From Eledone cirrhosa (Eukaryota), in NCBI GenBank assembly GCA_964016885.1, contig OZ024747.1, forward strand, positions 57,598,001 through 57,662,000: a DNA stretch of 64,000 nucleotides, in the 5' to 3' direction. Shown here piece by piece: positions 17,205 through 61,328 of this stretch (positions within the stretch are counted from its first letter, which is position 1; every line of letters begins with the position of its first letter). Below the pieces are notes generated by a model. It saw only the letters and a program-made list of their open reading frames with translations, searched no databases and had not been told where the DNA came from. A program made the translations under genes and the position numbers.

Positions 17205-17206
<2 letters not shown>

Positions 17207-17689
17207 GATAACAAGTTATCGTTTTAGGCAATCCAGTTAGAGGTTATGAGTACTCTGGACTATGGATAGTTTTAACGTACAGCGTTGTTTGACTCAATAA
17301 GTGGTTTCCTTAGTTAGGTAGCGAGTTTGCGAGAATTCTCATACAGGTTATTCTTGAAATAATAATAGTGAAAGAGTGAAGTATAACATGGTCGGCTGTA
17401 CAAAAGGGTTTTATTTACAGTATTAACAATTGTTTCATTGATCAGGTGAGTCTAAAGGCCGCTGATCACTCGAAATTGCGTCACTCGACCTTAAATACAA
17501 TGTGCGTCTCTGATCAAATCATCGGAATACAATGATTTGATCAGAGACACGCACTTTATTTAAGGTCGAGTGACGCAATTTCGAATGATCAGCGGCCTTT
17601 AGCCTTACCTGATCAATGAAACAATTGTTAATACTGTAAATAAAACCCTTTTGTACAGCCGACCATGTTATTCTTCTCTCTTTCACTTT
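17205..17689 (-). mobile_element. Solo PLE 3' end (fold-back), diverged relative of the 55-58 kb element
   Basis: Hairpin 17368-17687 with about 155-bp arms. Tail 17205-17367 on minus aligns by eye with 57895-58068 (TTGAGTCAAA, CGTTAA, CATAAC, TTGTTA..CC-(TA)n). Confidence 0.8.
17420..17530 (-). ncRNA. Type-I hammerhead ribozyme variant with long stem II
   Basis: GTATT CCGATGA T TTGATCAG [64 nt] CTGATCAA T GAAA C AATT G TT AATAC. All three stems pair. Confidence 0.7.
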
Positions 17690-54970: not shown

Positions 54971-55005
<35 letters not shown>

Positions 55006-55432
55006 CAGGAAAGGAGGTTTACATGGTTTGCTATACAAAAAAGTTTTTATTCACATAGCTTACATTTGTTTCACTGAACTGGTCTGTCTAGAGATCGCTA
55101 TCCGCCTAATTTTGCGTCATTCGATCGCCAATACAGAATTATAACCAGTCAGATCTTCGGAGCATGCGAGAATGAAGAAAATACACAGGCAAGAAAAGAA
55201 AAGAAAATATGGAGTAGTTATGGCATTCAATTAGAACAATAACAACAACAATTATTACAACAATGCTATCAATAAACTATTTAAGGAGACCCTGACATTA
55301 CTTAGGTGGGGGGTATATAATGTATCTAATGTTACGGCGTGAAAATCAGCTGTCATAAGGCAAAAAGTATCGTAGTGTGTATCAATTTTAAATTATAAAG
55401 ATAAGCTAGTATTTACAGTCTTTCTCTTCAAT

Positions 55433-55795
55433 AAAATACAAAATAGGGAGACGTGTAACTTCATACAATTTGATATAGACGACTATTATGCATCCATATC
55501 CCCAGCTACCCTAGATAAGGCGCTTATATTTGCCCAAAATAACTCTAATCTTACTCATGATGAAATTGAAATAATAATAGCGGCTAGAAGGACTATCGTA
55601 AAATTTGAAAATATCTACTGGGTAAGAAAGGATAGAATAAATAGCTTCGATATTACAATGGGATCAAATGATTCTGCGCAAATTACAGATATCGTGGGGC
55701 TATTCATAGCACACAACCTACATAAGGAATTCAGTAACCTCCAGGGAGGAATTTATAGGGACGACACGTTACTTATAGCTAGGATAAGAAGGTAA
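55433..55795 (+). pseudogene. PLE reverse transcriptase core fragment (absent from the ORF track)
   Basis: KIQNRETCNFIQFDIDDYYASIS (motif A), FDITMGSNDSAQITDIVG (motif B), GIYRDDTL (motif C). Then a deletion and frameshift near 55785 into DKKVNFLDVTLNL. Confidence 0.9.
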
Positions 55796-55806
55796 ACTTT
55801 CTAGAT

Positions 55807-56997
55807 GTGACTCTAAATCTAAATACTGGATTAATAGAACCTTTCCACAAAAATAATGAAAATCTTGCCTACATTAGTTACAACTCAAATCACCCCAAAT
55901 CCATAATTAAATCCATAGCACGTAGTATATCCCTCCGAATATCCCGCCTATCCTCAAACCTAGAAATCTTTAACGAGCATGCTGACTATTATAATGCAGC
56001 ATTAAGTAGGGCCGGTCATAAAGATAAACTACAGTATATAGTGAATAAGGACAACATAAACAATCCTAGTAATTTCTACTCCAACCGCTCACATAATAAT
56101 AGGAATAGCTTGACTAGACATAGGGTTAGACATGTAACACCTAGAGTAAACGGCCAAAACACTAATAACGTAAACCCAAGAAACAATAGAAGAAACAGAC
56201 AAAGAAAATACCTATGGTTCAACCCAATATTCAACTCCTCTATAAAAACTAGACTGCCCTCTACATTCTTTAAACTAATAGATAAACACTTCCCTATCTC
56301 GCATAGATATCACAAAATACTCAATAGATCTACTATTAAACTCTCTTTCTCAACAGCAGCTAACATAGAATCACACATACGTAAGATCAACCACAGAAAT
56401 ATCTCAAGTAAATCAATTGCACCTATACATAAGCACAAACTCATCACAACATCACAACCACAAGCGCATACAAACGCGCAGCAGCAAAACCCCATGGGGC
56501 ATATATCACAACCCACTTATAACAGGGTACTAAATAGGAATGTAAAAGCTGCACAAAATAGCGCCTCAAACTGCAACTGTCACCTCCCAGATAGGTGCCC
56601 ATTGGCGAACAGATGTCTCGATTCGAGCCTGGTGTACATGTGCACTGTCATCTCGGGTAACTCCACCTGGAATTACATAGGATCCACCGCGGGTTCTTTT
56701 AAGAAAAGATGGTATGTGCACAGGCACTCAATGAAAAATCGAGCACTTATGGGTTCCACCACTCTCGCCAGAAAAATATGGGAATTGAAGGACAGCAACG
56801 CTAGCTACACTATCAACTGGTCGAAGTTGTCGGCTGCTAAAACCTATAGTACAGGGATGTCCTATTGCGGGCTGTGTGATCTTGAGCTATTGTATATCCT
56901 TAGAAATGTTAAAAGGCTACTTAATAATAAGTTAGAAAGATCTATCTTCTGCAGACATAGAATAGCCACTAAATTCATAAGATTCAAACCTCCGTGA
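55807..56997 (+). CDS. C-terminal part of the PLE polyprotein: RT thumb, CxCx5C linker and GIY-YIG endonuclease (GTG is not the native start)
   Basis: SNHP, WFNP, KHFP, CNCHLPDRCPL, LVY..YIG, FKKRW..H, CGLC..E, LLN, CRH. 396 codons without a stop. Confidence 0.85.
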   Translation: MTLNLNTGLIEPFHKNNENLAYISYNSNHPKSIIKSIARSISLRISRLSSNLEIFNEHADYYNAALSRAGHKDKLQYIVNKDNINNPSNFYSNRSHNNRNSLTRHRVRHVTPRVNGQNTNNVNPRNNRRNRQRKYLWFNPIFNSSIKTRLPSTFFKLIDKHFPISHRYHKILNRSTIKLSFSTAANIESHIRKINHRNISSKSIAPIHKHKLITTSQPQAHTNAQQQNPMGHISQPTYNRVLNRNVKAAQNSASNCNCHLPDRCPLANRCLDSSLVYMCTVISGNSTWNYIGSTAGSFKKRWYVHRHSMKNRALMGSTTLARKIWELKDSNASYTINWSKLSAAKTYSTGMSYCGLCDLELLYILRNVKRLLNNKLERSIFCRHRIATKFIRFKPP

Positions 56998-57320
56998 ATC
57001 GAACCAACATAACATAGCTTTAAATTAGGATACCTACTACCCACAGAAATATATTCATTAAGTATACTATTTCCTTCACAAGTCTATACCACACAATTGT
57101 CTGTAAGTACCTCATCTACCAACAATCTTACTCCTTCTCAGCTGCTGCAATCATTTGATCCTAGATCCTAGTTTCTCTCATTTCACTACTACAACTTTAC
57201 CTTCTTTTTGCCATAACTACAATTAGCACGCTTTTCTCTTTGCATGTATGTATATTTTTGTACGAGTGTATATTGATGTGTATGTATGTGTCTATGTACA
57301 CATATATGTGTATATATATT

Positions 57321-57375
<55 letters not shown>

Positions 57376-57732
57376 ATAGATATATGCGTATATTAATTCG
57401 TTAACCTCTGTATTAACTCTACAACTATTGAGCTTTGACAGTGGTCCCACTCATGTATACTGTTGAAGATGAAGAGAAAGACTGTAAATACTAGCTTATC
57501 TTTATAATTTAAAATTGATACACACTACGATACTTTTTGCCTTATGACAGCTGATTTTCACGCCGTAACATTAGATACATTATATACCCCCCACCTAAGT
57601 AATGTCAGGGTCTCCTTAAATAGTTTATTGATAGCATTGTTGTAATAATTGTTGTTGTTATTGTTCTAATTGAATGCCATAACTACTCCATATTTTCTTT
57701 TCTTTTCTTGCCTGTGTATTTTCTTCATTCTC

Positions 57733-57847
57733 GCATGCTCCGAAGATCTGACTGGTTATAATTCTGTATTGGCGATCGAATGACGCAAAATTAGGCGGAT
57801 AGCGATCTCTAGACAGACCAGTTCAGTGAAACAAATGTAAGCTATGT
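57733..57847 (+). ncRNA. Hammerhead variant in the pLTR (mirror copy 55053-55167, minus)
   Basis: GCATGCT CCGAAGA T CTGACTGGT [60 nt] ACCAGTTCAG T GAAA C AAAT G TA AGCTATGT, followed by AATAAA at 57849. Confidence 0.72.
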
Positions 57848-58067
57848 GAATAAAAACTTTTTTGTATAGCAAACCATGTAAACCTTCTTTCCTGATTTAT
57901 TATTACTCCAAGTGTTTACAACATAGGAATTACAGCATACCCGCAGCATCACTATGAAAACGCCTTGTTGAGTCAAACCAAGCCAAGCGTTAATATCATC
58001 CACTACCTGGAATACCATAACTGGACTTCACCTAAGTGGACTGCATTTAACTATTATTTGTTAATCC

Positions 58068-58165
<98 letters not shown>

Positions 58166-58419: not shown

Positions 58420-58990
58420 GAATTGACAGGATCCCTCACCCGAGATGAATTAGACCTCCTCAGCCTGGGTCCCAAGCTCATATTGAAACAGTGACTGGAC
58501 GACAAATTATGGCTCGACATAGAAACGAATTTCTGTCGGGCTGCCTACCAACTAAAATGGATATCGACTCCTCGGCAACAACACCACGGAATCTAACAAA
58601 CCCAGATTCCCGATATACCAACTAGATCGCCCACTCTGTCCACCGCCTGCCAACCGCGAGCTTGAAGAAAAACTCTCGAGTCTAAAACATTCCGTATTTA
58701 ACATCTTACGGAAACAGAAGAAGATAGCCCCAAACCTCTCCAGGACACAACAACTCGCCCTGAAGAACCTACGGAAGAGGGAACTTATATACTTACCATC
58801 CGACAAAGGTAAAGAGTTTTGCGTCATCTCTCAAGCCACACACAACAACCTAGCCTTTGAACACCTAAGCGACAGTGAACTATATACAGAGATCCCAGAC
58901 ATGACTGCAGCCCAGATCGAAAAACAGACCAACTCCATCTGGTTCGACATCTGTAGGAGAAGACAACTCCCAAATAAAGTTAAACTCATA
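58420..58990 (+). pseudogene. Second PLE family: N-terminal pre-RT ORF fragment
   Basis: LTRDELDLLSLGPK...IETNFCRAAYQLKW, then a stop/frameshift, then NLSRTQQLALKNLRKRELIYLPSDKGKEFCVI...HLSDSELY (PLE DKG motif). Confidence 0.8.
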
Positions 58991-61328
58991 ATACCCTCAC
59001 TTTTTTACTTGGAAAAGTTACAACTATGGTGTTATTTGGTGCTGTTTGGTCCAGCTGTTTGGCGGAAAGTTTGTTACCTACATACGACCGTCAGCTTTAT
59101 AGTATATATACATATATATATTTGTGTATATATACATATTTATATATGTATATATTTGTTTATATATACATATATTATTTATATATGTTTATATATGTAA
59201 TATATATATATGTGTGTTTGTGAATTGGTGGAAAAATATTTAACTTGTGGAATTTAAGAGTCGATTAGGCTCTGTGTTTATATTTTCAATATTGCTCCAC
59301 ACAATCAATATATATATTATTTGCCAGCCATTATATTTACCGAGATACTGTTCGTGTTATTGGCCTTATTGTATTACCTGTATGAAATATACCTGAATAT
59401 AATTCATTTCTTGTACGTTGTTTATTTCAGGAAAATATCCCGTGATAAATTATTTTAGCAGAAACTCTTTCAAAGCTTCTTATATATTTTTCGAAATACC
59501 ATATTGATGGAAATGAACAACATATACTTACTATACTGCATAATAAATGACAGATTATGAACGAAAGAAATATAAGAATATATACTGTAAAATTGAAAAC
59601 ATTTCTCTATTTCTGTTGTAATTCAATATGAAATAATTTTGTAATCATTTTGGAAGGCGCTATACTTCTAGCGTTTGTTTAATATTTTTGCTAATATAAA
59701 TTTCTTATAGAAAGCATTATTCGTTGTCACGCATGCAATTTTATATGAAATAAATAGTAAAATTTCATATTACTAGAGTATATATCGTAGAGGTCTTGTA
59801 CAGTCCACTACAAAAATAAGAAGCAATAGTGTGATCTTGACACGCTTTTCCGTTCACAATGAGAGTCTATATGTAAAAGGATAACCTTCACGACTGTCTA
59901 ATATATCTGATAAATTTTAATTAGCACATACAAATAGCGATGGAGAAAATATAGTGCCACCATCAATTATAGTATATCAAAAATTTTGCTGGTCCGTCAA
60001 GAATTTATCTAATAGAAGTAACTACCACGAATACCCCAAATATTCAAATAAGAATCCTTTCATTATTGTATATTTGATAATTTTTTTAAATGTTCGAGAA
60101 TGATGATTCACTTAATTATATAACTTAACTAATTTGCCTCTTTATTAACCTGTTGTGTGGAACATAACGTAACACAGGTTGTGATAGTAAGATTTGAAAA
60201 GAATATAAACATTTAAAAATAAACGGTTTTACATCATAATACCTGGTTCGTTACTAATCACTTTGGCATTAAACGGGTTAAATAGATTTCAGAGCGATTA
60301 ATTAAGATTTGGTTAAGCTGTTGCTGCAGAAACGTAACGATGCTTGAAAACATATTCCAGCTATTACAATATTTCTGTTCTTAGTGAAATTGTATAAACA
60401 AACAAACCACAGCTTTTACAAATCAAAGTGTATCTCAGACTTATTAAAAATTTTCTTACATTTAGGGACGGCTAAAATCTACAAATTTCTTCTATTGTAT
60501 ACTATAACATCAAAGACTGCTTATCAATGAGTCTTACGGTGACAGTAATATACTTATCACCTTAGGGTGAACAAGAGTGAGGGATGCAGAAAGTGTACTC
60601 CATGATGTAAATAAAAATTTCAATGATAAAAAATGAGAGTTAAGTTAGTGTTAGCATATTTCAGTTAGCCATTGTAACTTGTGAACATATATTCTTTACT
60701 ATTCCCTAATTTAATGTAAAAGCTGCTCGAAAACTGGCATTCCTAAACCTTGTTTGAATTTGCATAATTTAAGTGTGTTAAATGTAATCTCAAATGTAAA
60801 CATATATATACTTATATTGATATCACTAGCTCTTTAACTTTATATGTTCCTATAAATCTCAATATATTTCTGGAGATCATAACTACTTTTTAATGTTCAC
60901 ACATATCTTGTACAGAATAAGAATATTTAAATATGAATGAAACATGTATAGTTGAAATATCAACCACATATCATTTCCTAAACAAACAATAATCAACAGG
61001 GAATCTCAACAACGCTGTTGTCATTCTCTTAAATAATCAGGAAGTGAATACCATATAATGCATGATATGTCGTATGGGATTTCTCTCTATGTAAATATAT
61101 AAAGTGAAATCACCGGATATATATAGTGAAAGCAAATACAATACTATAATAAATATTGCATTATGGATATTTTACCTTTCTTTACCGAGACAATTCGTTC
61201 TTCTATCACGAGAATCTTCTCTATCTATTATATACAAAGCTTAGATAGACTCAATGGCGGTATGTTAATTCAATTCGCCGTCTACAATGTGACTTACTTC
61301 GTATTGCTTGAAATATGGGATTACTTAC

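Follow-up and report, generated by a model that had tools for sequence, protein, structure and literature searches.

The 64-kb stretch of Eledone cirrhosa DNA analysed here (the window) holds two hammerhead motifs, A and B, whose stem II is extended by a long insert, and the question they raise is whether such ribozymes form a class of their own and what their long arm is for. A sequence-only reading had taken them for an unusual class marked by C4, a U·U opposition at 10.1/11.1 and an invariant TGACGCAA in the insert, and had proposed that the insert is either a structured RNA sub-domain or a bZIP site embedded in the ribozyme. We find all literal items of both motifs (stems, cores, inserts, TGACGCAA and their positions) in the sequence (Table 1), together with the AATAAA that had been placed within about 10 nt of the predicted cut and that follows it by 9 nt in both. 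The CUGANGA, GAAA and GUH core letters occur in a three-way topology within a pseudo-LTR (pLTR), with C in place of U4 in the two window families. The two motifs said to represent two diverged families are real, but they are homologous relatives: A and B align with 69% identity over 341 nt, which had been missed, and the endonucleases of their elements are ~67% identical, so that the letters common to A and B are largely shared ancestry. The words "invariant" and "class" are true of the two copies compared and untrue of the wider family.

Motif A lies in an insertion spanning ~55000-58076 with (TA)n on both flanks, and motif B within a short insertion at about 17205-17689. A third hammerhead, identical to A but inverted, is found at 55160-55061, and B has a core-truncated inverted hammerhead of its own at about 17531-17651; the earlier reading had overlooked the third hammerhead as well as the inverted partial copy of B. 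Another PLE-like ORF fragment, with a DKG motif and no Pfam match, directly follows the motif A insertion at 58556-59200 (+).

Table 1. Features of the hammerhead motifs and their insertions in the 64-kb window
Feature	Position	Strand	Details
Type I hammerhead motif A, in 3' pLTR	57733..57847	+	cut predicted after 57839
Motif A stem I	57733-57739 / 57840-57847	+	GCATGCT / AGCTATGT
Motif A core	57740-57746; 57828-57831	+	CCGAAGA; GAAA
Motif A 10.1/11.1 opposition	57747 / 57827	+	T vs T
Motif A stem II	57748-57756 / 57817-57826	+	
Long stem II arm	57748..57826	+	outer helix, variable 5' bulge, module 1, middle helix, module 2, apical helix, 8-nt loop
Motif A insert	57757-57816	+	60 nt
Module 1, 5' strand GTATT	57766..57770	+	3' partner TAGAC 57810-57814
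Module 2, 5' strand GAAT (GAGT in most subfamilies)	57778..57781	+	3' partner TAGC 57800-57803
TGACGCAA in motif A	57781..57788	+	end of module 2 loop, 5' arm of apical helix (CGC/GCG), loop start
Motif A GAAAC-AAAT-GTA	57828-57839	+	
AATAAA of motif A	57849..57854	+	9 nt past predicted cut
Downstream pLTR with two fixed 3' ends	57840..58076	+	+61 (57900) and +237 (~58069-58076), each joined to (TA)n
Inverted 5' pLTR copy of motif A insertion	55000..55430	-	99.8% identical; finishes at +61 site
RT / GIY-YIG coding region of motif A insertion	55431..56997	+	5'-truncated; open frame 55783-56997
Hammerhead motif B	17420..17530	-	core CCGATGA 17525-17519; cut predicted after 17425
Motif B insert	TGACGCAA at 17483-17476	-	64 nt
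Motif B GAAAC-AATT-GTT	last letter 17425	-	AATAAA at same offset as in motif A
Inverted partial copy of B	17531..17689	+	lacks first core letters; finishes at short 3' site

Both motifs sit in pLTRs of related elements that, by their coding motifs, are Penelope-like elements (PLEs) of the Hydra clade, which supports their earlier identification as pLTR hammerheads of PLEs. At one locus (L049), the unit between two hammerheads is 3550 nt long and encodes a reverse transcriptase (RT; YRDD) with a C-terminal GIY-YIG in a single ORF, and many family A copies keep open frames of ~808 aa. Pfam gave no matches for five translations, and the element motifs were therefore read by eye; they include RWK, DKT, a CxCX5C linker, and CxxC and CxH around a conserved E and N. 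Family A is young, its top rows being 98-99% identical among the 64 rows listed, and the target is (TA)n in 40/40 of its terminal copies. In the available parts of Craig et al. 2021 (PMC8557442), RWK, DKT, CxCX5C, CxxC/CxH, a C-terminal GIY-YIG and (TA)n targets are marks of the Hydra clade, to which the elements are assigned by motifs read by eye. As far as that source goes, the elements also share with the clade their inverted 5' copies, a pLTR hammerhead and the U·U opposition (14/26 listed rows), and depart from it in the length of the unit (3550 nt, against generally <3 kb), in the tail between the two 3' ends (176 nt, against 30-40 bp) and in a loop that is ~60 nt long, structured and equipped with two modules, where published loops measure 3-10 nt (File S2); a size of <3 kb and a short-loop hammerhead are descriptive traits of the clade, not diagnostic ones.

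Long arms are a large part of the hammerhead motifs in this genome and are of several types. In a search of 3.0 Gb, counting both strands and hence inverted pairs twice, a pattern combining the core with TGACGCAA gave 1534 matches and none in the control, so the motif is not a product of chance. A core with a 55-85 nt insert and AATAAA, TGACGCAA being optional, gave 7972 matches (control 16), inserts of 25-54 nt with a restricted loop III gave 2546 (control 83) and inserts of 86-116 nt gave 608 (control 24). Long-arm forms thereby total roughly 11,000 matches, against about 16,800 ordinary short forms with a 3-nt loop III (16788; control 838), and arms of 41-109 nt occur in this genome in many unrelated types. 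Rfam returned only microsatellite-driven or chance matches over the whole window and locally, and no hammerhead match at E up to 10 for 57650-58070. A metagenome scan with an arm-plus-core pattern produced 3 matches that we attribute to chance, all of them representing one bacterial coding stretch and none matching R1, a model that scores motif A at 123.5 bits and was itself built from motif A.

Several other long-arm types were seen. A separate, abundant one has inserts of ~47-52 nt, a CATG loop III and its own internal loop (L034:437-504, L040, L045, L067). Families with 57-63 nt arms keep a GAGT/GAGC loop (L031-L038, L063-L070); many of their copies are very short, consisting of hammerhead and tail, often in inverted pairs, and L037 alone has an upstream Hydra-like RT (37.5%). 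Hammerheads with arms of 91-105 nt (L103, L105, L107, L109, L116-L119, L129) lack both of the internal-loop modules described below. At L044:1001-6592, tandem 5.5-kb repeats each contain a long-arm hammerhead, and their opposite strand encodes an unrelated, putatively CRE-like non-LTR RT/endonuclease.

The arm is predicted to fold as RNA, with covarying helices. Alignment A1 comprises 32 copies, picked by hand out of 15 subfamilies. Pairing holds for 90% of its 758 cells, compared with 29-43% when the controls are slid, and 0/500 shuffles attained its score for pairing or for covariation. Changes on both sides affect 3/3 apical pairs and 4/12 middle pairs, counts that are inflated because the rows are related: on a tree of the downstream region (14/32 rows, including 2 that are flank), 1-2 changes suffice for any one covarying pair of the arm. 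RNAalifold unaided recovers the core of the arm, with compensatory changes in 6/8 pairs; stem I and outer stem II, whose registers differ from one subfamily to another, were not recovered from A1. Folded alone, motif A gives the arm (z -2.5; 4/200 shuffles as good), and motif B folds no better than shuffles (z -0.6). The covariation in 32 copies and the RNAalifold result support the proposal of a structured RNA sub-domain with compensatory changes, the arm helices continuing to covary once the comparison is widened from two copies to 15 subfamilies.

The conserved core of the arm consists of two internal loops, not of TGACGCAA. Module 1 has the form NN-AUU/UAG-NN and module 2 the form GADU/YAGC, with their A residues 11 nt apart. 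Because a sequence-only alignment of distant families misaligned the 3' half, anchors were used for these families. With anchors only and no pairing constraint, the modules are present in 22/23 representatives, the module 2 anchor having fallen four letters early in four E rows. The closing pairs are complementary in 43/44 cases and of five types (GT/AC, GC/GC, AC/GT, AT/AT and GT/AT), a complementarity matched by 0/10,000 shuffles of rows that are not independent. The unpaired or mismatched module letters (57768, 57779, 57781, 57810 and 57812) are invariant in 15/15 subfamilies, whereas the 5' bulge and the apical loop drift among the same subfamilies. A pattern for the arm alone matched 9182 times, against 99 in the control; by eye, both closing pairs are complementary in 98 of the first 100 matches listed, and hammerhead context surrounds 30/30 of those examined. 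In an endonuclease tree that took in only the endonucleases of the Eledone genome and database relatives, the module carriers form one clade, set off by a 96/98 branch from the database relatives and from two other long-arm types; carrier endonucleases fall to ~43-50% identity, and carrier N115 lies on a very long branch. A strict module descriptor matches 16/52 long-arm clusters, although it also missed families that the anchors recovered. Shorter-armed families retain only a GAGT/GAGC-like module 2 loop, and several long-arm families carry neither module. Other structural readings were dropped: a pseudoknot of GTATT with AATAAA for lack of covariation, and SECIS, K-turn, loop E and pol III B-box readings on geometry or variation.

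The letters that had suggested a new class proved variable. C4 is present in only 1904/7972 long-arm matches (24%) and in 14/32 aligned rows. At 10.1/11.1, the 32 rows have U·U in 17, A·A in 6, A·G in 3, U-A in 3, G·U in 2 and C·A in 1, the choice among U·U, A·A, G·U, A·G and U-A depending on the subfamily, and the G10.1-C11.1 pair of the PLE minimal type I hammerhead is absent from all 32. Both oddities are also already published and, like TGACGCAA, do not hold up as class markers. According to the accessible text of Perreault et al. 2011 (PMC3088659), U4C and U10.1-U11.1 are natural hammerhead variants, U4C lowering in vitro activity and U-U being the best-tolerated mismatch at 10.1/11.1; the substitutions here are identical but segregate among retroelement subfamilies and define no class. 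In the published Hydra table (PMC8557442 File S2), read by eye, U·U is the commonest form (14/26 rows) and U4 occurs in 26/26.

Other parts of the core differ between families as well. Loop III is palindromic in B (AATT) and in 43/69 cluster representatives, but not in A (AAAT), and its predicted self-duplex amounts to -0.7 kcal/mol in A against -6.4 in B. Family A, the youngest, thus unites C4, U·U and a non-palindromic loop III, yet has many copies with open frames that are 98-99% identical. AATAAA and ATTAAA are common poly(A) hexamers; an AWTAAA lies 9 nt past the cut in 30/30 loci chosen without it (22 AATAAA, 8 ATTAAA), and in family A the hexamer is ATTAAA for 98 of the first 100 matches listed. 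Among 30 loci selected by their arm, the 3' core is exact in 28 and both core halves in 18. Five combine an A9U core (CTGATGT) with an intact arm (L141, L143 and L163-L165, approximately three independent insertions), and two do so with an A6G core (CCGGTGA; L156, L160).

The 3' ends of the insertions bear on whether the predicted cut is made before integration. Among 52 family-A copies, 18 end at +61/64 and 22 at +234/237, the other 12 continuing into the ORF, so that 40/40 terminal copies end at one of two fixed sites past the predicted cut; in inverted pairs, one copy has the first kind of end and its partner the second. To copy the arm and the ORF, cDNA begun at +61 or +237 must cross the cut site. 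Probes gave counts of 668 upstream of the core, 811 on the core, 666 just before the cut and 742 just after it, which amounts to no large copy-number step across the cut (the last probe is degenerate, and subfamilies match probes unequally). Of 30 copies that are nearly full length, 12 continue through the hammerhead to its upstream side, and the start of 2 lies no more than 25 nt from the cut. Together, the fixed ends and the copies that run through the cut imply that integrated copies come mostly from uncleaved RNA. The two ends correspond to the two RT start sites of the anole Poseidon element PAc in the available account of Frangieh et al. 2024 (PMC11167929), the tail being longer here. 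The putative start sites (57900; 58069-58076) both finish in TAT/TATAT and so offer microhomology with the (TA)n target. At the other end, 22/81 copies have 5' ends within 30 nt upstream of the hammerhead, a count confounded by inverted junctions, (TA)n and subfamily divergence. An ATG lies at +380 from C3.

The reading that we favor, tentatively and with slightly more doubt than belief, is that of a weak, protein-gated ribozyme whose arm is a putative docking site for the element's RT-endonuclease. The arm would fold in vivo as predicted; the RT-endonuclease, possibly as a dimer, would bind the two modules, whose spacing is roughly one helical turn; once bound, the RT would be positioned on uncleaved RNA at its two start sites, 60-240 nt further downstream; and ribozyme cleavage would serve at another stage, for example in the trimming of tandem transcripts. 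Docking is suggested by the identity of the element, the covariation of the arm, the modules, the fixed ends and the copies that cross the cut, as well as by the A9U and A6G cores whose arm is intact, while the weakness of the ribozyme is suggested by C4, U·U and a non-palindromic loop III in the youngest, still-intact family. Protein gating has a precedent in the anole Poseidon element, whose hammerhead, as far as the available text describes it, needs protein in order to cleave, and whose main template is RNA that has not been processed (PMC11167929). The same element also speaks against docking, because its stem II begins at the ORF start and a 5' truncation to +20 still supports insertion, which places the binding site mostly outside stem II. 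Moreover, published Hydra loops of only 3-10 nt argue that such an arm is not generally required, and the shorter arms that keep only a module 2-like loop, the long arms that have neither module, and the relatedness of the rows with its 1-2 changes per covarying pair all count against docking. A stronger version, a dedicated RT-docking domain in which the two A·G loops bind an RT-endonuclease dimer, switch off cleavage during target-primed reverse transcription and set both starts, is unlikely.

The mostly intact cores, with a 3' half that is exact in nearly all arm-selected loci, fit selection for cleavage and hence also a doubtful but possible alternative, that the arm is a tertiary-contact or dimerisation module that engages stem I, the 3' flank or another ribozyme and needs no protein to rescue a weak core. 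Contacts between the periphery of stems I and II raise hammerhead activity and have been proposed to offset variant cores such as U4C, to follow the accessible text of PMC3088659, and here stem I is short and stem III only 2 bp. However, the modules start ~19 nt beyond the core on the 5' strand, far from a stem I of 5-7 bp; they show no covarying partner (where GTATT has become GCATT or ACATT, it is the 3' strand of the arm itself that has changed with it, not the downstream AWTAAA); and integrated copies bear little trace of cleavage. If the arm were instead a tolerated hairpin expansion, selected only for closing on itself so that the core can fold, and without a specific partner, the many unrelated arm types in the genome would be expected, and common descent would by itself leave many columns invariant at ~70% identity. 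This we consider quite unlikely, given module letters that stay fixed while the 5' bulge and apical loop drift and that persist at 43-50% protein identity while adjacent pairs swap. Binding of a host protein, for export, stability or cap-independent translation of the cleaved RNA, in place of the element's enzyme, would predict equal structural conservation, and in tandem transcripts the start codon does follow the arm at a distance of ~280-360 nt; but once the RNA is cleaved, the arm would stay with the upstream product and be separated from the ORF, and we judge this very unlikely.

That the stretch acts as DNA, with TGACGCAA serving as the bZIP site of a promoter internal to the pLTR, was the dual-use idea of the sequence-only reading and appears highly improbable. 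In its favor, TGACGCAA resembles a CRE/C-EBP site, and some copies begin just 5' of the hammerhead, as the probe counts of 668 upstream and 811 on the core indicate, although this step may reflect a better match of subfamily A2 to one probe. An internal promoter is held by the Drosophila Penelope pLTR, according to the accessible part of PMC2377424. Against it, TGACGCAA is exact in 16/32 rows, some of which were chosen by it, in 6/15 subfamilies and in 11/30 arm-selected loci, and its conservation ranks 39 of 73 eight-column windows, so that it does not stand out from neighbouring bases as had been supposed. In its place, the closest sister subfamily carries TAACGTGA, and other subfamilies carry TGGCACTG or TTATACTG along with a matching change in the partner strand; the RNA helix is kept through all replacements (CGC/GCG, CAC/GTG, TAC/GTA). 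A promoter that overlaps the arm may use letters other than TGACGCAA.

Set against known systems, the hammerhead is of a known kind, the PLE minimal type I of, by its motifs, the Hydra clade, and the long two-module arm is apparently new. It resembles the PLE hammerheads of Cervera and De la Pena 2014 (PMC4209133), in the part accessible, in its pLTR location, long helix II and short helix I, an extra base after A9, a tiny and often palindromic helix III, many variable families per genome and low expected activity; it differs in lacking a conserved G10.1-C11.1, in the non-palindromic loop III of family A and in a long structured extension where loop 2 is short. With anole PAc (PMC11167929, available text) it shares two RT starts downstream of the hammerhead, which give a tail at one end, and unprocessed RNA as template, here read from copies only; PAc belongs to a different clade, its hammerhead overlaps the ORF start and has no long arm, and its stem II is largely dispensable for insertion in vitro. 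The Selaginella PLE-X hammerheads (Craig 2021 File S2, available part) likewise have an enlarged loop 2, flagged as deviating from canonical; that loop is ~30-35 nt, half the length, and the elements are endonuclease-less and from a plant. We found no published report of a long structured stem II in Hydra PLEs in the parts of the literature accessible to us, and Lunse et al., Arkhipova et al. 2017 and the supplements of Cervera 2014 may describe long-loop variants.

A young family with intact frames, fixed ends and a mutable, covarying arm makes the role of a PLE hammerhead testable in vitro. Since long-arm forms escape Rfam here and exceed the short spacers of the core search in PMC8557442, to judge from its available parts, a large part of the hammerheads may go uncounted when such genomes are surveyed for ribozymes. 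If the arm were indeed a dedicated docking domain, it would be to a retroelement what the RNA domains that load telomerase RT are to that related enzyme, and the ribozyme would be a hammerhead naturally switched by protein.
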